DNA from: Paracoccaceae bacterium
GTDB taxonomy: Bacteria; Pseudomonadota; Alphaproteobacteria; MPNO01; UBA830
Direction of reading: 5' to 3'
DNA: 64,000 nucleotides
Assembly (NCBI GenBank): GCA_047638395.1
Contig: JBLIMV010000002.1
Location: 162,787 to 226,786 of the forward strand
Part shown: positions 5,133-54,668 of the stretch, in pieces
How the letters are laid out: each line of letters starts with the position of its first letter
Numbering within the stretch: the first letter of the stretch is position 1
Notes under the pieces: generated by a model
The model's database searches: none
The model's input: the letters and a program-made list of their open reading frames with translations, nothing else
Told to the model about the DNA's origin: nothing
Made by a program: the position numbers and the translations under genes

Positions 5133-6305
5133 CTAGGCGCGCTCATCGACCGCAAGCGGCCCTTCTTCAAGACTATCGGCAAAGACAATTTCGTCTGCCG
5201 AAATCAGCGTCTGGCTTTTGAACCGCCGGGCGATCTCGGCCGAGACGTCATCGTTACCCGCCCCTTCGACGGCCAGCGCCAGGCGATCGCCGCCGCCATC
5301 CTTGGCCGATACCGTCAGACGATAAGTACCGGTCGGCCCTTCAAGGCCAAGCAACACGGCACGGACTTCGGACGGATAAATCTTCACACCCTTTACCTTC
5401 ACCATATTGTCGGTTCGCCCAAAGACGACACGCGGCAGATTAACCGTCCGGCCATGGACCGGACCGGTCGTCTGGCGGACCGTCAGATCACCGGTCCGGT
5501 AGCGCACCAGCGGCTGTGCTTCTTTCTTCAGATGAGACAGCACCAGCTCGCCGCGTTCGCCGTCAGCGACAAGTTCGCCGGTCGCCGGATCGATGACTTC
5601 AGCATAAACCAGCTCGTCAAACACATGCACGCCCGTGCCGCCCGGAAACGTGCGCGCAACCGGCAGGAATTCCGACAGCGAAAACGAATCCACGAGGATC
5701 GTGTCGGGCATGGCCGCCTTTACGGCGCCATACAGTGTAGGATTGCCGGTAAACGCTTCACCGCCGGCAAAGAACACCTTCGGCGGTGTGAGACCGGCTT
5801 CAATCAGTTTCAGTGAAAACGACGGATTACCCGCCAGCACGGTCACATTGTGTTTGGCGCAAACATCGACGGTGCGTTCGGCCTCACCCGGTCCGAGCGG
5901 AATACACGCGACCCCGTGGGCTTCCATCTGCGACTGGTAAAACAACCCGGCGACAAACATGTGATAGCCGAATGTGACGGCACAGACATCGCCCGGGCCG
6001 ATCCCGCAGGCATCCAGCTGGGTGCGCGCGGCGGCGATCATGTTGGCCATATCGCCCGCCGTCTGCATGGCCGGCACAAGGGACGCGCCCATCGGGCTCA
6101 GATTCATGCGCACCGGGTTGGTGCCGCCAAAGGCGCCGTAGCCCGGCTTTTCCATCTCGGCGACAAGATCGCCACGGCCCATCAGAGGTGCGTTCGCGGC
6201 AAAATCCGCCGCATCGGCAACGCTGGCCGGCAGCCGTCCCTTGTAGAACGGATGTGCCGCCAGTTTATCGAGCTGCGCGTTCAGGGCATCAGTCGGAAAC
6301 GTCAT
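5133..6305 (-). CDS. phenylacetate-CoA ligase (PaaK/F390-synthetase) family adenylate-forming enzyme
   Basis: About 390 aa. PaaK-like AMP-binding core (YRTGD, KVKG motifs). Confidence 0.65.
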   Translation of the reverse strand: MTFPTDALNAQLDKLAAHPFYKGRLPASVADAADFAANAPLMGRGDLVAEMEKPGYGAFGGTNPVRMNLSPMGASLVPAMQTAGDMANMIAAARTQLDACGIGPGDVCAVTFGYHMFVAGLFYQSQMEAHGVACIPLGPGEAERTVDVCAKHNVTVLAGNPSFSLKLIEAGLTPPKVFFAGGEAFTGNPTLYGAVKAAMPDTILVDSFSLSEFLPVARTFPGGTGVHVFDELVYAEVIDPATGELVADGERGELVLSHLKKEAQPLVRYRTGDLTVRQTTGPVHGRTVNLPRVVFGRTDNMVKVKGVKIYPSEVRAVLLGLEGPTGTYRLTVSAKDGGGDRLALAVEGAGNDDVSAEIARRFKSQTLISADEIVFADSLEEGPLAVDERA

Positions 6306-35857: not shown

Positions 35858-36345
35858 TCAAGCCCCGGTCAGGACGATCGGGAAATCACCGCCGGTAGAA
35901 CGGGGTCGATTTAACCAGTTGTCCACAGGACCCTGCCCGGACTCCGGGAAATCTGCGCGGTACTGCCCGTGCGGCGGGTTAATTTTGGTTAAAATTCAGA
36001 AATATTTACAGATTCATTACCCCCCAAAGCTAAACCCGTGATATTCTGTCTTTTGTCGGCTCACTCAAAAAATTGGGGTGTCGGCGGCTACAAAGTGTTC
36101 CGTCAGAAAACAACATCTGACCGGATACACGGCAGGATGGGACAGTAAGGGATAGCAATGCCACAGTGACCGACCTTCGGCTCAAGAAGGGACGGCCCAA
36201 CTAAAAAATTGAACGAAAAAGGTATTGCCTGAGGCGATAAGCCAATGAGCGCGGATATTAAGAACAGGCCACGAAAAAGTGGCCGGGACACCTGACGATC
36301 TGACGACTGACTTACAACTTACGACGCAAAGAGGGAGCCTTTAAA

Positions 36346-36525
36346 TGAGCGATTCGAACACCGGTTCATTGGATGCTGAAGAAATTGTCTTGGACCACCG
36401 CGCGGCCACGGACGTTCCGATCGACCGCAAATGCATGTCATGCAGTGAAAAGTTTGCAAGCGAGGGATGGCATAATCGTTTGTGCCTGCGCTGCCGGAAA
36501 CGCAGCGAGCCCGATTTCGTCTAAC
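36346..36525 (+). CDS. small zinc-ribbon protein (59 aa, two CxxC pairs); not in the ORF track
   Basis: Strong SD (AGAGGGAG) 8 nt upstream of ATG. CMSC...CLRC motifs. Followed immediately by a strong terminator. Confidence 0.5.
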
Positions 36526-36544: not shown

Positions 36545-36577
36545 AAAATCCCGGTGCATTGCGCCGGGATTTTTTTA
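36545..36577 (+). terminator. rho-independent (bidirectional) terminator
   Basis: AAATCCCGG-TGCATTGCG-CCGGGATTTTTTT hairpin with a flanking A-run and T-run. Confidence 0.65.
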
Positions 36578-36648
36578 TGCCCGCATTCCGGAGTCGGCGT
36601 GTGAATGATAGGCTCTCACCGTAAACCCTAACCGATGGAGAATCCTGA

Positions 36649-37101
36649 ATGGCATTGATTGCTGCCGGCGTTGACGCGCCTGATTTCAGCCTCCCGAACC
36701 AGGACGGTGCTGCGGTGAAGAAAGACGACTTCACCGGCCGTTACGTCCTGCTCTGGTGGTACCCCAAAGCCGACACACCCGGCTGAACGATCGAAGGCAA
36801 CGGGTTCCGTGATAGAATCCAAGACTTTGAAGACCGTAACGCGGTCATCCTCGGCGTCAGCTATGACAGCGCCGCCGATAATGGTGCGTTTCGTGAAAAA
36901 TTCTCGTTTCCCTATGACCTCGTAAGCGACGAGGACGGTGCGGTATCGATCGCTTATGGCGTATCGGAGCCGGACAGTGCCCGTTCGCCGCGCAAGTCGG
37001 TGCTGATCGGCCCCGATGGCAAGGTCGCTGCATCCTATGACGCGGTAAAACCGGCGGATCACCCCGCCGAAATCATCGCTGATCTGGACCGCCTGAAGTA
37101 G
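36649..37101 (+). CDS. bcp: Bcp-type peroxiredoxin (thiol peroxidase) with an in-frame TGA at the peroxidatic-Cys position; putative selenoprotein
   Basis: GGAGAA RBS. Aligns with E. coli Bcp: FYPKAMTPGCTVQACGLRD versus WYPKADTPG[TGA]TIEGNGFRD. TGA at 36784-36786 is codon 46. The frame continues 104 codons to TAG at 37099. Confidence 0.55.
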
Positions 37102-37230
37102 CGAATATCCACGAGAGCAATGCTTAGGGGCGGATCTTTGATCCGCCCCTTTTCCGATAGGATATCCGGGGGCGAACAGGCCTCCGGAAACGCTGGACAC
37201 GGCAGCGCCGGCATACGAAAGGAAGATGAA

Positions 37231-37683
37231 ATGATAAAAACCCGCATCCATGCGATTGCCGGAATCATAGCCTTTCTGACCATCCTGACGTTCTGGCTGT
37301 CCACCCTGGTATCGGAAATATTCGGCAGCCTTGCCGACATTGCACAGGTCAAAAACGCGATTCTGTGGGGCATGATTATCCTGGTCCCCTGCCTGATGCT
37401 GACCGGGGGGACCGGCGCGTCGCTGGGTAAACGACGGAACGATCCACGCGTTTCGGCGAAGAAAAAACGCATGCCGCTGATTGCCGGTAACGGCCTGGTC
37501 GTCCTGGTTCCCTCCGCGGTACTGCTGTCCTTCATGGCAAGTAACGGCGATTTCAGCACCGCGTTTTACGCCGTCCAGGCGCTCGAACTGGTCGTCGGCA
37601 CAGTTAACCTGACCCTGATGGGTCTCAATATCCGGGACGGTTTCGCACTGAGAAAACCGTTGCCGAAAGAACCGGCGACATAG
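37231..37683 (+). CDS. hypothetical membrane protein (4 TM)
   Basis: GGAAG RBS. Hydrophobic helices. Confidence 0.45.
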   Translation: MIKTRIHAIAGIIAFLTILTFWLSTLVSEIFGSLADIAQVKNAILWGMIILVPCLMLTGGTGASLGKRRNDPRVSAKKKRMPLIAGNGLVVLVPSAVLLSFMASNGDFSTAFYAVQALELVVGTVNLTLMGLNIRDGFALRKPLPKEPAT

Positions 37684-37767
37684 GTTGATGTCGGGCCGGC
37701 GCAAACACAGACTTTAAGAATCGGGCTATGCGCGATAGCCTGCCGGAAGCCCGACAAAGGATTCTGA

Positions 37768-47498: not shown

Positions 47499-50400
47499 TT
47501 GTTCGCTCAGGATTTATCAGTGGTCGAGAGTTCGAAGTATTCACGCGCGCGTTCAGGACGCGGGAAACGGCACCGGCACTCGTCCGGATGGCGACGGCTG
47601 AGCAATGCTGGCGAACTGTGCCTGCGGCTCGTCCTCGGTGCGGCACTTACCGGTTCGCTACCGATCCAGGTTTTTGCGAACCCGCAGGGCGGCGCCGTCA
47701 CGGAGGGATCAGCGACGATCCAGCAATCGGGCAACCGTGTCGATGTTCACCAGGCCACCGACCGAGCCGTAATCGACTGGCGGTCGTTTTCGATCGCCCC
47801 CGGTGAGATCACCCAGTTTCACCAACCTTCGGCAGGCTCTATTGCGCTGAACCGCGTAACAGGCGCCGACCCGTCCCGCATTTTCGGCACGTTGCGTGCG
47901 AATGGCCGCGTCTTTCTGATCAACCCCAATGGAATCATGTTCGGTGCCGGGTCCCGCGTGGACGTCTCCGGTCTGGTCGCGACGACATCCAATATCCGCA
48001 ATGAGGATTTTATGGCCGGACGGATGGAATTTTCCATCCCGTCGCTGAATCCGCAGGCTTCCGTCGTTAATGAGGGGGATATCAGTATCGCGGATGCCGG
48101 ATATGCCGCCCTTGTCGCACCGCATGTACGAAATTCCGGCGTCATAAACGCCCGGCTCGGCCGGGTCACACTGGGCGCCGCGGATGCCTTCGCCATCGAC
48201 CTCTACGGCGATGATCTGGTGACCTTTCGGGTGGGTGTCGGGCGAACACCGGTAGATGCCGACGGTAACCCGGTCGACAGCCTTATTGATAACCAGGGCA
48301 GCATTCTGGCCGGGGGCGGAATCGTGCGGCTCGCGACACACAATGTAGAAGCCGTGGTCCGCAACGTGATCAATACCGATGGCGTGATCTATGCCAATAC
48401 GATCGAGCGACGGGACGGAAAGATCATCCTTGGTGCGGCCGGCAAGGGCGCTATTTCGGCGAAGGGCGAACTCTCCGCGACGGGCGGGTCAATTGAAATC
48501 GCGGGCAACGAAGATATTTCGCTGTCCGGAACACGTATCGCGGCAACTGATGTGGCAATCAACGCCGATGCCGACAAATCCGGCGCCGGCGACCTGAACG
48601 CCGGGACAAGCGGCGGCGATGCGATCCTGACCGATATCGATATCGATACAGCCGCGGGCAATGATGAAGGCGGCCGCGTGGTGATAACCGGCGACCGTGT
48701 CGCCATATTGGGCGCTTCGACTATCGATGCTTCGGGCGAGGCGGGCGGCGGCGAAATTCTCATCGGCGGCGATTTTCAGGGCAATGGCGTAACCCGAAAC
48801 GCCGATGCGACAATCGTCGGCGAAGATGTCCGCCTGAAGGCCGATGCGCTTGAGTTCGGCAACGGCGGGCGCGTGATTTTATGGGCGGACGGATTTACCC
48901 GCTTTCATGGCGCGATCTCGGCTATCGCAGGGCTGACGGCCGGCGATGGCGGCTTTACCGAGGTGTCGGGCAAACAGAACCTCGACTTCCAGGGCAGCGT
49001 GGATGTGACCGCCGCGGCGGGCGAAATCGGCACGCTTCTTCTCGATCCCGTCGATATTATCGTTTCAGCAGACAACACGGATGGCGCCACAGGCACGGGT
49101 CTGGGCAGCATCCTGTTCGCAGACGCTCCGGGCCTGAATCCCTGGAACGTCAGTCCGGCAGCTCTGGATGCCGTGAGCGGCAATATTCTGTTGCAGGCAA
49201 CCAATGACATCACGATCAGCAACGACATCAACCTGACCACACTGGGTGCGACATTCACGGCGACGGCGAATAACGACATCATCGTCAATGCCGGCGTGAC
49301 AACCAATAATGCGGCGATCACCCTGACGGCCGATGACGATGGTAGCGGTGTTGGCGAGCTTACCATTGCCGCCAGCCAGACCGTGACCAGTGGTAATAAC
49401 GCCGTCAACATCTCGGCCAACGACGTCGCGTTTACGGGCGGGATCGACAGCGGCACCGGCACAACCACGATCCTGATATCCGATGGCGGCACCATAAAAC
49501 TCGGCGGCACCCCCAGCGGCAACATGACCATTTCCGGGTCGGAACTTCAGAACATTACCGCCGCCAACCTGATCATCGGCGACGCGACGAACGGCAATAT
49601 CGAGGTCAAGAACGTCAGCGCGGCGGAGAGCAACAATGTGGGCACGGTCACGCTGAACGCCACCAAAGCAGGGGCCACCGTCGATATGAGCACCGGTGGC
49701 GGCAATGTCTTCAATGCCCTGGTGATCAATGCCGACGCCGCGGTTGCGACAAAAATCCTGACCACCGATACCGGCGGGCTGACGATCAATTCAGGCAACG
49801 GCGTAACGATTTCAGACAATGTAACGTCAGCCGGTGCGACAGTCATCGACGCCGACACCGACAATAACGGAACCGGTACATTCACGGTGACCAGCACATT
49901 CGCGCTGAACACGGCGGGCAATTCGTTGTCCATCACTGCGGACGACATCAACATCGCCGGCACCATCAACACTGGCGCCGCGGCGACCACGATACTGATC
50001 TCCGACGCGGGAACGATCGGATTCGGCAACAGCGCCCGGAATATGACGATATCCGGCGCAGAGCTTCAGAATATCACGGCCACAGGCCTGACCATCGGCG
50101 ACGCGACGAATGGCGACATCACGGTTGACGGCATTTCGGCGGCAAACAGCAACAACATCACCGGCACGGTCACGCTGAACGCGACGAATGCCGCCGCCTC
50201 GATTTCGATTTCGAACGCGGGGTCGACGTTCAACGCGCTGACCGCCAACGCGGCCAACACCATTACAGGCAATATTCCGCTGGTGACGGATACCGGCGCG
50301 CTGACACTGACTGCAGGGGCCGGAATTACGTTCAACGACACGGTTACAACAGCCGGCGCGGCTGTTTTCGATGCCGACAGCGATAACAACGGCACGGGCG

Positions 50401-53400
50401 ATTTCACGCTGAGCAATGCCCTCAATACATCAAACAACACGCTGACGATCACGGCCAATGACGTCGTGCTGTCCAACACGATCAATACCGGCACGGCCGC
50501 CACGACAATCCTGATCTCCGACGGCGGAACCATCGGGCTGGGCGCGACAGCGGGTGGCATGACGATTTCCGGCGCCGAGCTGCAAAACATCACCGCGACC
50601 GGGCTGACCGTCGGGGATGCCACCAGCGGCAACATCACGGTCAACGGGATCACGGCGGCAAACAGCAACAATATCTCGGGTACGGTCACGCTGAATGCGA
50701 CACAGGACAACGCGACCCTCTCGTTTTCGGGCGCCGCCTCGACATTCAACGCCATTGCCGCGAATGCGGATGACGGGATCAGTATCAGTCAGAATATCTC
50801 AACCGATGTCGGCGGTCTCGCGCTCGACGGCGATGCCGACAACGCGGCGGATATCAACGACAATCTCACGTTCTCCGCCGGGGTGACACTGAGCAGTTTC
50901 GGAAATATCACGCTTGATGCGACGATCGGGAATATGTCCGGCGCTGGCGCGCTTACACTGAATGCGCGCAGCGGGTTGACCTTCAATGACAGCCTGGCGA
51001 CCGCCGGGGCAACAGCGTTGAACGCCGACACCAACAATAACGGCAGTAGTATGCTGACCCTCGCCGCAGGCGCTGCACTCGCCACCGGCGGCAACACCCT
51101 GTCGATAACGGCAAGTGACATAAACGTCTTGGGCACGATCACCAGCGGGGCTGCAGCAACCACAATCCTGGTATCCGCGGGCGGCAGCATCGGGCTTGGC
51201 GCCACGGCCGGCAGCATGACCATCGACGGGACCGAGCTGCAGAACATCACGGCGAACGGCCTCACCATCGGCGACACGTCCGCCGGGAATATAACCGTCA
51301 ACGGCATCACAGCAGCCAACAGCAACAACATTACCGGTACGACGTCGCTTGTAGCAGGCAGCAATGGCGCAGCAGTCACCTTTGCCACGGCGGCCTCCAC
51401 GTTCAATGCGCTAACGGCCAGCGGTGACAATCGCGTTATCGTCAATGTCGCCATCACCACGGATGCGGGCGACCTGGACCTGAACGGCGACCTCGACAAC
51501 GCTGCCGATACCAACGACGACATCGCCATAGCTGCAGGCCTGACCCTGACCTCCGCCGGGTCGATCAAACTGGCGGCGACGAACACGGGCATATCGGCAA
51601 GTGGTGCGCTCACGCTGAATGCACAGAGCGGTGTGACGCTGAATGACAGCCTGGTTGTCGGAGGTGCCGCGGTCATCGATACCGATACGGACAATAACGG
51701 GATCGGCGATTTCACGATCAACGCATCGCGCACACTGACGACGAACAACAACACGTTGACGATCACGGCAAACGACCTGGCCCTTTCGGGTGCATTGAAC
51801 AGCGGATCTGCGGCGACCACGGTCCTGACATCCGACGGTGCATCGATTGGCCTTGGCGCAACAGCCGGGGGCATGACAATCGATGGTGCCGAGCTTCAGA
51901 ACATCACAGCGACAGGCCTGACCATTGGAGATTCGACAACCGGAGGCATCACGGTCGACGGGATTACCGCGGCCAATAGCAACAATATCACGGGGACCGT
52001 CACGCTGAACGCGGCGGCCGACAATGCCACCGCATCGTTCGTGACAACGGCATCGACTTTCAATGCGCTCGACGTCAATGCGGATGACCGGATCTCGGTC
52101 AACGTCAACATCACAACCGACATCGGAGATCTCGCGCTGGATGGCAACGTGGATAACGCCGCAGATGTGAACGATGATATTGCGTTTGCTGCAGGTGTCA
52201 CGCTGTCTTCCGCTGGATCTCTCACCCTCGATGCCACGACCGGGAACATGACAAGTGCCGGGGGGCTGACCCTGAACGCCAATAACAGCGTTACCCTGAA
52301 TGATACCCTGACGACGGCCGGCGCGACGGTTATCGACGCCGATGACGACACGAACGGTAGTGGTACCTTCATCGTCGTTGCATCAAAAACGGTGAATTCC
52401 ACCAATAACTCCCTCCAGATCGTTGCGAACAAAATCGACCTTGCCGGGGAGCTGAACAGCGGCACCCAGTCAACCACGTTGACGGCAACGAACGGCGCCG
52501 CCATCGACCTCGGGTCCGCAACCGACATCGCTGCCAATACGTTCGAACTCTCGAACAGCGAACTCCAATCCATCACGGCGGCAAATCTGACAATCGGCGA
52601 TGGGACGGCCGGCGCGATCACGGTATCCGCTGACGTAACGCCCGGTAACGCCGCGGGCGCCAACGTCATCACACTCAATCTTGTCACGGGTTCGACAATG
52701 ACCGCCTCGGCCGGCGCCATAATAGAGACGAACCTGTCGGTCGTGGCCGCCGGTGCTGTCACATTCAGTGCCGCAACCACGGATACCGACGTAATCGCCA
52801 TCGATACCTCCACCGGGGATATCGCCTATACAGATATCGACGGGTTCACAGTCGACACCGTTGGCGCTGTCACCGGTGTCGACACGGCGGCTGGCGCAAT
52901 CACGCTCATCGCGACGACCGGCAATATCATTGTGGCCAATACCGCAGCCGCCAACGATATCGGCGCGACGGGCCTCATCACGCTCAAGGCATCCGCAGAC
53001 AACGCGGCAATCAATATACTGACGGGCGCAGACACTGAATCTACGGGCGGCGCGCACAGCTACACCGCCGACGACATCGAAATAAGCGGAACGATCACGG
53101 CAACCGGACAGGACGTTACGCTGGCTTCAAGCACAGCCGGCGACGCCATCGATGTGGGCGACCCCGGCGGCGGGGGCGACAACGTGGCAAATACGCTGGA
53201 ACTTGCGGGCGCCGAGCTACAGAACATTACGGCGACCAACCTGAATATTGGTGGCGCTGCCGCCGGCAATATGACGATCGAGGGCATTTCTGCCGCCAAC
53301 AGCAATAACATCTCGGGTCTGGTAACGCTTACCGCCAACGGAAACGGGTCGACGGTGACATTCCAGAACGCGGCGTCGACGTTCAACGCGCTGAGTGCTC

Positions 53401-54668
53401 ATGCCGACGACCGGCTGGCCGTGGACATCGATGTCACGACCGACGTCGGTAATATGACCCTGGACGCCGATTCCGATGATGCTGCCGATACCAATGACGA
53501 CCTGGTATTTGCCGCAGGTGTGACAATAACGTCGGCAGGCTCCTTGACGCTTGCCGCCACGACAGGCGGAATCACCGGCACCGGTGCATTGACGCTGGAT
53601 GCTCAAAACGGGCTCTCGGTCGGCAATGCCTATACCGGTTCCGGGAATGCCGCATTCAACGCCGATAGCGACGGGAACAGCGCGGGTAACTTCACTGCGA
53701 CAACGATGGCTCTCGGTGCCAACACCCTGAATGTTACGGGTGCGTCGGTAAATACCGGGACCAGTCTCGCGGCGGGGACCACGACGCTGAACGGTGCCGT
53801 CACCGGATCCGGCCTGACTGTCACGGCTCTTACCCTCACCGGCGCCAGCGCGACATTGACCGGCACAACCATTGGCGGGCAGTCAGGAAACGATGCTGCT
53901 GCAGCGGCGACGATGCCCGACGCCGCGACCCACACCATCAATGGCTGTCAGAACACCCGTTGTGTTGTCGCGGTTGTCACGCCAACGCCGCCGCCCGACC
54001 TGGACAATGTGCAGGTCGATACAGGCGGCACAGGCGGCATCGGTACAGGTGGTACAGGCGGCAGTTCGGGCGGAACGGACACTGGCGGTAGCACCGATAG
54101 CGATACGTCGGGCGGCGACACTGGCGGTTCAGAGACCGGCGACACGAGCGGCGGAGACACTTCGGGCGGAGACAGCTCTGACGGCGGCGGATCTACCACC
54201 AATGACAATAGTGGCGGCGGCACATCCGGCGGAGACACCTCATCCCCCAATGGGAGTTCCGACGACGTTGCCGGCGGAGACAGCAATGTCGGAGACAGCG
54301 GCGGCGGATGGAGCGACGGGTCGTTCAATGCCGCATCCGGCGATGTGCTGTTGACCGGATCGGTCGGCAATTTTGAGGTGTTCTTCGAAGCGCTCAAGGA
54401 AGATGGCGCAAGTACCCTGGAATTGCTGGAGGCATCGGAAAATCTCGAAAACACCGAGCTCGCATCGCTTGTAAAAGCGCTGGGCGACATTCTGGGTGAA
54501 TATGAATTCGTCTCGACATCGATCCCGACGAACGCATTTGACGACAAGGCGACAACCCTGCTGCCCGGCCTTCTCACGTTCGATCCCGCCGCGACTGGCA
54601 ACGATACCGCCACCTCCCCCGCATCGCGCAAATATCAACCGCCGAGCTTCGGCCGGTTCCAGTTCTAA
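47499..54668 (+). CDS. large TpsA exoprotein (filamentous-hemagglutinin N-terminal TPS domain, 2389 aa, beta-helical repeats)
   Basis: TPS/haemagg_act domain (NPQGG...IDWRSFSI...QFHQPSA...ALNRVTG...INPNGIMFG). TTG start as given by the ORF track; GTG 47520 is an alternative. Confidence 0.8.
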   Translation: MFAQDLSVVESSKYSRARSGRGKRHRHSSGWRRLSNAGELCLRLVLGAALTGSLPIQVFANPQGGAVTEGSATIQQSGNRVDVHQATDRAVIDWRSFSIAPGEITQFHQPSAGSIALNRVTGADPSRIFGTLRANGRVFLINPNGIMFGAGSRVDVSGLVATTSNIRNEDFMAGRMEFSIPSLNPQASVVNEGDISIADAGYAALVAPHVRNSGVINARLGRVTLGAADAFAIDLYGDDLVTFRVGVGRTPVDADGNPVDSLIDNQGSILAGGGIVRLATHNVEAVVRNVINTDGVIYANTIERRDGKIILGAAGKGAISAKGELSATGGSIEIAGNEDISLSGTRIAATDVAINADADKSGAGDLNAGTSGGDAILTDIDIDTAAGNDEGGRVVITGDRVAILGASTIDASGEAGGGEILIGGDFQGNGVTRNADATIVGEDVRLKADALEFGNGGRVILWADGFTRFHGAISAIAGLTAGDGGFTEVSGKQNLDFQGSVDVTAAAGEIGTLLLDPVDIIVSADNTDGATGTGLGSILFADAPGLNPWNVSPAALDAVSGNILLQATNDITISNDINLTTLGATFTATANNDIIVNAGVTTNNAAITLTADDDGSGVGELTIAASQTVTSGNNAVNISANDVAFTGGIDSGTGTTTILISDGGTIKLGGTPSGNMTISGSELQNITAANLIIGDATNGNIEVKNVSAAESNNVGTVTLNATKAGATVDMSTGGGNVFNALVINADAAVATKILTTDTGGLTINSGNGVTISDNVTSAGATVIDADTDNNGTGTFTVTSTFALNTAGNSLSITADDINIAGTINTGAAATTILISDAGTIGFGNSARNMTISGAELQNITATGLTIGDATNGDITVDGISAANSNNITGTVTLNATNAAASISISNAGSTFNALTANAANTITGNIPLVTDTGALTLTAGAGITFNDTVTTAGAAVFDADSDNNGTGDFTLSNALNTSNNTLTITANDVVLSNTINTGTAATTILISDGGTIGLGATAGGMTISGAELQNITATGLTVGDATSGNITVNGITAANSNNISGTVTLNATQDNATLSFSGAASTFNAIAANADDGISISQNISTDVGGLALDGDADNAADINDNLTFSAGVTLSSFGNITLDATIGNMSGAGALTLNARSGLTFNDSLATAGATALNADTNNNGSSMLTLAAGAALATGGNTLSITASDINVLGTITSGAAATTILVSAGGSIGLGATAGSMTIDGTELQNITANGLTIGDTSAGNITVNGITAANSNNITGTTSLVAGSNGAAVTFATAASTFNALTASGDNRVIVNVAITTDAGDLDLNGDLDNAADTNDDIAIAAGLTLTSAGSIKLAATNTGISASGALTLNAQSGVTLNDSLVVGGAAVIDTDTDNNGIGDFTINASRTLTTNNNTLTITANDLALSGALNSGSAATTVLTSDGASIGLGATAGGMTIDGAELQNITATGLTIGDSTTGGITVDGITAANSNNITGTVTLNAAADNATASFVTTASTFNALDVNADDRISVNVNITTDIGDLALDGNVDNAADVNDDIAFAAGVTLSSAGSLTLDATTGNMTSAGGLTLNANNSVTLNDTLTTAGATVIDADDDTNGSGTFIVVASKTVNSTNNSLQIVANKIDLAGELNSGTQSTTLTATNGAAIDLGSATDIAANTFELSNSELQSITAANLTIGDGTAGAITVSADVTPGNAAGANVITLNLVTGSTMTASAGAIIETNLSVVAAGAVTFSAATTDTDVIAIDTSTGDIAYTDIDGFTVDTVGAVTGVDTAAGAITLIATTGNIIVANTAAANDIGATGLITLKASADNAAINILTGADTESTGGAHSYTADDIEISGTITATGQDVTLASSTAGDAIDVGDPGGGGDNVANTLELAGAELQNITATNLNIGGAAAGNMTIEGISAANSNNISGLVTLTANGNGSTVTFQNAASTFNALSAHADDRLAVDIDVTTDVGNMTLDADSDDAADTNDDLVFAAGVTITSAGSLTLAATTGGITGTGALTLDAQNGLSVGNAYTGSGNAAFNADSDGNSAGNFTATTMALGANTLNVTGASVNTGTSLAAGTTTLNGAVTGSGLTVTALTLTGASATLTGTTIGGQSGNDAAAAATMPDAATHTINGCQNTRCVVAVVTPTPPPDLDNVQVDTGGTGGIGTGGTGGSSGGTDTGGSTDSDTSGGDTGGSETGDTSGGDTSGGDSSDGGGSTTNDNSGGGTSGGDTSSPNGSSDDVAGGDSNVGDSGGGWSDGSFNAASGDVLLTGSVGNFEVFFEALKEDGASTLELLEASENLENTELASLVKALGDILGEYEFVSTSIPTNAFDDKATTLLPGLLTFDPAATGNDTATSPASRKYQPPSFGRFQF
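49440..53640 (+). repeat. about seven tandem coding repeats (510-680 bp each) within the TpsA gene
   Basis: Recurring ...TTILISDGGTIGLG...MTISGAELQNITATGLTIGD..GNITV.GI.AANSNNITGTVTLNAT...STFNAL... blocks. Confidence 0.7.

Follow-up and report, generated by a model that had tools for sequence, protein, structure and literature searches.

The window, i.e., the whole stretch of 64,000 nucleotides that was analysed, carries at positions 36649–37101 of its forward strand a gene whose reading frame runs from an ATG to a TAG stop codon (37099–37101) and has a single in-frame interruption, a TGA at codon 46. The frame and its flanks are made up of the following features:

36549–36576: GC-rich hairpin followed by a T-run, upstream of the peroxiredoxin gene (read from the sequence)
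36637–36640, forward strand: Shine-Dalgarno-like GGAG, 8 nt before the ATG at 36649 (read from the sequence)
36649–37101, forward strand: predicted coding sequence of a selenocysteine (Sec)-containing Bcp/PrxQ-type peroxiredoxin, 150 codons, Sec at codon 46, stop codon TAG (translation, Pfam, orthologs, dN/dS)
36766–36786, forward strand: active-site motif P39-K-A-D-T43-P-G-U46 (PxxxTxxU), from the translation, aligned to TPGC of E. coli Bcp and to BCP chains of the PDB
36784–36786, forward strand: TGA predicted to be read as selenocysteine (Sec46, the peroxidatic residue), conserved among the orthologous genes
37127–37153, forward strand: terminator-like hairpin GGGGCGGATC-TTT-GATCCGCCCC followed by TTTT, 26 nt past the stop codon (read from the sequence)

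A first, sequence-only reading of this locus had described a Shine-Dalgarno sequence, an ATG and 150 codons with one in-frame TGA, and had pointed out that the program-made list of open reading frames splits the gene and displays an antisense frame of 358 aa instead. Both descriptions agree with the sequence and its translation: the list holds a 45-aa ORF (36649..36786) and, on the reverse strand, the 358-aa ORF (36628..37704), which overlies the peroxiredoxin gene and extends into the one after it. With hairpins on either side, at 36549–36576 and 37127–37153, the peroxiredoxin gene looks monocistronic. A consensus scan for promoters and terminators found no sigma-70 promoter and called neither of the two hairpins, the downstream one being missed because its T-run has only four T.

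Just upstream, at 36345–36524 on the forward strand, lies a 59-aa ORF with two CxxC pairs (CMSC...CLRC), followed by the terminator-like hairpin at 36549–36576; it has no match in Pfam, and its sequence suggests a zinc-ribbon-like protein. The neighbouring FAD-oxidase gene is also present on three short contigs from JGI and Logan samples. Farther along the window a 2389-aa ORF (47499–54668, forward strand) consists of highly repetitive units rich in Thr, Ala, Gly and Asn, and its N-terminus resembles, by eye, the secretion domain of two-partner-secretion (filamentous haemagglutinin-like) adhesins.

The encoded protein and its active site

The protein searches were run with a cysteine substituted at codon 46. 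The translation matches the Pfam family AhpC-TSA (PF00578) with an E-value of 1e-30 and a score of 106.6 bits (cut-off 26), residues 7–128 covering positions 2–123 of the 124 positions of the profile, and it also matches the Pfam family Redoxin. An alignment with E. coli Bcp gives 39% identity over 144 residues and is ungapped near the active site, where U46 is matched to the peroxidatic cysteine of TPGC in the E. coli protein; the same alignment is obtained with the BCP chains of the PDB. The proposal that the protein is Bcp-like along its whole length, with the TGA at the catalytic cysteine of the TPGC motif, is thereby borne out. R115 aligns with the conserved arginine of E. coli Bcp (in R-I-S-F-L-I) and of 5enu, and the columns of the active-site motif are invariant or nearly so among the 81 orthologs described below.

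Of the 15 PDB matches with E<=1e-10, 13 bear deposited names of the BCP/PrxQ type, and the top two NCBIfam matches are Bcp and PrxQ. The equivalog cut-offs of both are missed (Bcp, NF006960, 101.1 against 140 bits; PrxQ, NF053650, 100.2 against 260 bits), and the protein would therefore represent a BCP-like lineage of its own that is an equivalog of neither. With E. coli Bcp and the solved BCP/PrxQ structures (5enu, 3gkk, 5iph) it shares the PxxxTxxC motif, here with U in place of the last C, the conserved Arg and a size of about 150–160 aa, whereas it differs from E. coli Bcp in having Sec for the peroxidatic Cys, Asn51 for the resolving Cys, and no other cysteine. PrxU (NF040737) of Eubacterium (Peptoclostridium) acidaminophilum, an experimentally characterised Sec-peroxiredoxin, likewise has Sec at the peroxidatic position, but belongs to another peroxiredoxin subfamily, of the AhpC/Prx1 type with a profile of 233 aa; its equivalog cut-off was not reached (46.5 bits against 270).

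The resolving cysteine of E. coli Bcp lies five residues past the peroxidatic one. A resolving Cys at this +5 position occurs only in the atypical 2-Cys BCPs, and many BCPs are without it. The sequence-only reading had placed a glycine there; the aligned residue is in fact Asn51, and Gly50 and Gly52 are only its neighbours. The peroxiredoxin of the window contains zero cysteines, and among the 81 orthologs a second Cys position is never conserved, 47 of the 81 having no Cys at all and the commonest position being occupied in 9 of the 81. Lacking a resolving Cys, or any Cys, the protein should act as a one-Sec peroxidase, i.e., by a mechanism of the 1-Cys type.

Conservation of the TGA and selection on the reading frame

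One alternative is that an error of sequencing or assembly produced the TGA, or that a nonsense mutation turned a bcp gene into a pseudogene, and gene callers in effect treat the locus in this way: the JGI annotation (L083) misses the peroxiredoxin and shows an antisense ORF, and the long-contig entries of NCBI and ENA consist only of C-terminal fragments of 83–104 aa. It was weighed using a scan with one genome per species (GTDB representatives), which returned 250 relatives. The best 80 of these, from 80 different MAGs, were used; they are 62–94% identical at the amino acid level, and nearly all carry the label of marine Alphaproteobacteria, Rhodospirillaceae or Rhodospirillales. The orthologous codon is TGA in 80 of the 80 other species (81 of 81 when the gene of the window is counted), as found by motif search in 79 orthologs and by inspection in L027, which reads ADPPG*. 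Such a degree of conservation greatly exceeds what chance would give. Five of the orthologs lie on closed chromosomes, OZ251539.1 (L013), OZ244055.1 (L021), OZ241868.1 (L028), OX638326.1 (L045) and OZ253470.1 (L056). Two of the orthologs, L067 and L080, are in MAGs labelled Gammaproteobacteria and Verrucomicrobiales, which could be due to binning contamination or horizontal transfer; the labels of the other 78 are alphaproteobacterial or broad.

The strength of selection on the two sides of the TGA was compared by dN/dS, the median pairwise value being 0.14 in the 40 codons upstream and 0.16 in the 60 codons downstream (dS outside the hairpin codons, at about 1.4–1.5, is saturated). Purifying selection is thus equal on both sides, which argues that the frame is translated beyond the TGA. 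Since a TGA present in 81 of 81 independently assembled orthologs from different species can be neither a sequencing error nor a pseudogene, since the downstream codons are as constrained as the upstream ones, and since a conserved hairpin follows the TGA on its 3′ side (see below), an error or a pseudogene is extremely improbable.

The antisense ORF at 36628..37704 on the reverse strand could in principle be the real gene, with the similarity to peroxiredoxins being incidental. Among the ORFs that cover the region it is the longest, and a 207-aa version of it is what JGI annotated (L083:6182-6805). It has, however, no match in Pfam, and the same frame contains one to seven stops in 57 of 80 orthologous regions, whereas the sense frame gives the AhpC-TSA match and is under purifying selection. 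There is practically no reason left to prefer the antisense frame over the sense frame that encodes the peroxiredoxin.

The treatment of the family in the protein databases follows from the same TGA. Among the best 120 protein-database clusters, the Sec position reads 'W' in 73 and Cys in 22, the other 25 being fragments (83–104 aa) that start just past the TGA. Most of the full-length entries (clusters P0001–P0066, e.g., P0002, P0005, P0009, P0013 and P0020) were translated with genetic code 4 and so display a Trp at the catalytic position; the 'W' calls come from short contigs, and several of the code-4 entries carry false C-terminal extensions past the real TGA stop.

A conserved hairpin behind the TGA

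RNA folding downstream of the UGA gave a two-tier hairpin in which internal loops separate a lower from an upper stem, so that a SECIS-like structure does fold at the place where the sequence-only reading had suggested looking for one. Its parts are:

36791–36830, forward strand: predicted bacterial SECIS element (minimum-free-energy fold, covariation, frozen synonymous sites)
36791–36796 paired with 36825–36830, forward strand: lower stem, UCGAAG / CUUUGA
36802–36807 paired with 36815–36820, forward strand: upper stem of 6 bp, GGGUUC / GAAUCC
36808–36814, forward strand: apical loop of 7 nt, CGUGAUA

The element of 40 nt has a minimum free energy of -10.1 kcal/mol, and the spacing from the UGA to the loop is 21 nt. 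Folding of the single sequence only modestly beats that of shuffled sequences (z = -1.3 to -2.0), and with this weak single-sequence significance the case for a SECIS rests on the comparison of orthologs. For this purpose an ungapped alignment of 80 sequences (A2) was used, with 78 distinct sequences for the pairing counts. In the upper stem every cell of these 78 sequences (100%) is paired. Two compensatory double changes keep it so, from U-A to C-G in L024, at the price of the substitutions F53L and I57A, and from G-C to A-U in L041; a further 12 one-sided changes (G-U to A-U or G-C) also preserve pairing. Over the whole structure 95.1% of the positions are paired, as opposed to 49–60% in a control in which the partners were slid by one column. 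RNAalifold independently arrived at the same upper stem together with the inner four pairs of the lower one, whose two outer pairs are less well kept and fail to form in 13 and 25 of the 78 sequences.

The codons that form the hairpin are also frozen at their synonymous sites. The loop CGUGAUN is almost invariant among the orthologs: R54 is encoded by CGT in 81 of 81, whereas R115 uses five codons, and F53 is TTC in 80 of 80, whereas the other invariant Phe positions divide between their two codons at about 2:1. D55 is GAT in 78 of 81 and I57 is ATC in 79 of 80, and G52 is encoded only by GGG or GGA, GGC being the codon that dominates at other glycines. Accordingly dS is 0.25 over codons 52–58, compared with about 1.4 elsewhere.

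The anatomy may be held against the published bSECIS model (PMC13188914), which has a loop of 3–9 nt, an upper stem of 4–16 bp, a UGA-to-loop distance of 16–37 nt, a minimum free energy of at most -7.5 kcal/mol, and a G at loop position 1 or 2, with another G or a U usually coming next. The hairpin at 36791–36830, with 7 nt, 6 bp, 21 nt, a G at the second position followed by U, and -10.1 kcal/mol, lies within all of these ranges. Rfam contained no matching SECIS family for the element, a permissive search around the TGA giving chance matches only. A covariance model of the TGA plus SECIS (R1), run over the window with filters off, retrieved this element alone (80.4 bits), the next match scoring 10 bits (E=6). 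As in E. coli fdhF, the prototype of the bSECIS, the hairpin is part of the coding sequence and follows closely on the 3′ side of the UGA; the two elements have unrelated primary sequences. The SECIS of E. coli fdhF has a bulged U, and the upper stem here has none.

A different hairpin, ACGG-GUU-CCGU (36800–36810), had been put forward from the sequence as a weak SECIS candidate. Such a hairpin can be drawn, but 22 of the 78 distinct orthologs cannot form its second pair, and it is devoid of covariation. It overlaps the 5′ arm of the conserved hairpin, with which it is mutually exclusive, and was therefore rejected as a functional element; the conserved structure is the other, overlapping one.

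Homologs that use cysteine, with which an alignment had been proposed at the outset, were found: besides the 22 Cys clusters, the more distant homologs in L086 and L087 have TGC at the Sec codon. The first of these, P0017 (L086:120-572, from ENA ERZ27300294, contig k119_170300), is 62% identical and retains the hairpin sequence GGG TTC CGT GAT AGA ATC C intact, which suggests that Sec was exchanged for Cys only recently and that the SECIS stayed behind as a fossil. The second, P0062 in L087, is 57% identical and keeps the residues G-F-R-D-R, encoded as GGT TTC CGG GAT CGG, and here the hairpin is gone. Since L087 holds these residues without the hairpin, the hairpin is no by-product of the protein sequence. 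A sequencing error, a nonsense pseudogene and the lack of any SECIS, which had been named at the start as what could overturn the selenoprotein reading, are rejected by the conservation, the dN/dS and the hairpin.

Decoding of the TGA and place in a known family

The many entries with a Trp raise the question of whether TGA might have been reassigned genome-wide as a sense codon, as in translation tables 4 or 25; W stands at the Sec position, after all, in the translations of 73 of the 120 best homolog clusters. The same W translations, however, run past a genuine TGA stop into C-terminal extensions that themselves start with W. Moreover, TGA is the commonest stop of the long ORFs in the window (13 of 31), and 30 of the 81 prx genes terminate with TGA. 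With TGA an ordinary stop both in the window and in the prx orthologs, reassignment can be given next to no credence, and the UGA at codon 46 is better seen as a local exception to its use as a stop. A codon-usage scan of all in-frame TGAs in the window returned the one at 36784 and three others, the third of which (28795, reverse strand) was the weakest-scoring; those other coding-looking in-frame TGAs of the six-frame scan that were inspected turned out to be antisense artefacts. Two of them, considered as a possible second selenoprotein, are antisense to an enoyl-CoA hydratase-like gene and to the 2389-aa adhesin-like gene, and were discarded. A scan of the window and the ortholog loci for CxxU/UxxC motifs yielded one group of out-of-frame artefacts only, and no SelW-like neighbour.

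The machinery for Sec insertion was searched for in the window and around the orthologs. Using the E. coli proteins SelA, SelB and SelD as queries, tblastn found selA, selB and selD neither in the 64-kb window nor in the 80 ortholog loci, which took in as much as 10 kb of sequence to either side of the gene; one weak match to a GTPase was the only result. ARAGORN found no tRNA gene in the 64-kb window, nor was there any match in Rfam, and 79 of the 80 ortholog loci are likewise without a tRNA-Sec. The exception is L032, where ARAGORN located a tRNA-Sec with the anticodon UCA at 6110–6200 on the reverse strand, 2.9 kb downstream of the ortholog (L032:2757-3203), a call that reaches 79.3 bits with the Rfam model RF01852 against a gathering score of 47. 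This tRNA gene is situated between ORFs of 287 aa and 217 aa and does not adjoin selA or selB. In many of the closer relatives (L002, L004, L007–L013, L016, L017, L021, L023 and L025) a tRNA-Ala(CGC) is found on the opposite strand, 0.1–10 kb downstream of the ortholog; the window, unlike these, is without any tRNA gene, so that the local synteny differs.

Systems for SelB-dependent insertion of cysteine exist, in which a tRNA-Sec-like tRNA is charged with cysteine. The UGA could accordingly be recoded to something other than Sec, either by such an insertion of Cys or by read-through with a near-cognate Trp- or Cys-tRNA stimulated by the hairpin. In favour of such a recoding, selA and selD are absent from the window and from the ortholog-locus sequences that were searched. 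On the other hand, the family matches the catalogued Sec-Prx TxxU family, a canonical tRNA-Sec lies near one ortholog (L032), and an enzyme with Trp as its peroxidatic residue would be inactive. As for Cys, the lineages that use it simply carry TGC, which leaves a costly recoding for its insertion without an obvious rationale. Recoding to a residue other than Sec is thus considered very unlikely, and Sec is preferred as the residue at position 46.

Sec-containing peroxiredoxins had been mentioned in the sequence-only reading as known in bacteria, and the literature agrees. In the Sargasso Sea selenoproteome (Zhang, Fomenko & Gladyshev 2005, PMC1088965, Tables 1 and 3) Prx is listed under COG1225 with the motif TXXU and 43 sequences, and in the GOS analysis (Zhang & Gladyshev 2008, PMC2398784, Table 2) under pfam00578 with TxxU and 253 sequences; a 2026 review (PMC13188914) counts Prx (PF00578, TxxU, PxxxTxxU) among the established prokaryotic selenoproteins. 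The gene of the window agrees with this marine Sec-Prx family in its Pfam family, in the motif (T43-P-G-U46 being TxxU), in having Sec for the peroxidatic Cys, in a SECIS with a G in the apical loop right after the UGA, in its occurrence in marine bacteria and in having widespread Cys homologs. No difference from the family was found, the match being drawn from motif, COG/Pfam assignment and habitat. Some of the Prx genes in the GOS data adjoin SelW-like genes (PMC2398784), whereas the gene of the window has no such neighbour. Having the same attributes in the same kind of organism as the catalogued Sec-Prx, the gene is by its sequence a member of the marine Sec-Prx (TxxU) family described about twenty years ago.

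Taken together, the TGA in 80 of 80 species, the Cys homologs, the selection downstream, the SECIS and the normal use of TGA as a stop uphold the original proposal of a selenoprotein gene with Sec at the peroxidatic Cys, and 36649–37101 is very probably a genuine Sec-decoding gene for a functional Bcp/PrxQ-type peroxiredoxin. Judging from the anatomy of the element and the comparative data, SelB-GTP carrying Sec-tRNA(Sec) would bind the apical part of the hairpin at 36791–36830, and Sec would then be inserted at UGA codon 46, where release factor 2 would otherwise act. According to the chemistry of peroxiredoxins, the selenolate, activated by T43 and R115, would then reduce H2O2 or an organic hydroperoxide and become a selenenic acid, which an external thiol (thioredoxin, glutaredoxin or glutathione) would presumably recycle directly, thereby replacing the intramolecular resolving Cys. 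Unlikely, though still worth stating, is a bolder version in which the clade would have an obligately cysteine-free, single-Sec BCP whose selenenic acid is recycled by an undescribed partner or chemistry, with the CGUGAU loop as a lineage-specific SelB code in at least 80 species; or, more radically, SelB might decode the UGA as an amino acid other than Sec.

The Sec-peroxiredoxin gene is mis-handled by every pipeline that is represented in these data, which amounts to a systematic mis-annotation in the public databases. The alignment of 81 sequences together with the SECIS could serve as the starting point for a covariance or HMM model by which genes of the Sec-Prx family would be recovered automatically. 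Sec-Prx is among the most abundant selenoprotein families of ocean metagenomes, and the gene described here, read as above, confirms the expectation that marine Alphaproteobacteria use a Sec-containing peroxiredoxin of the Bcp type.
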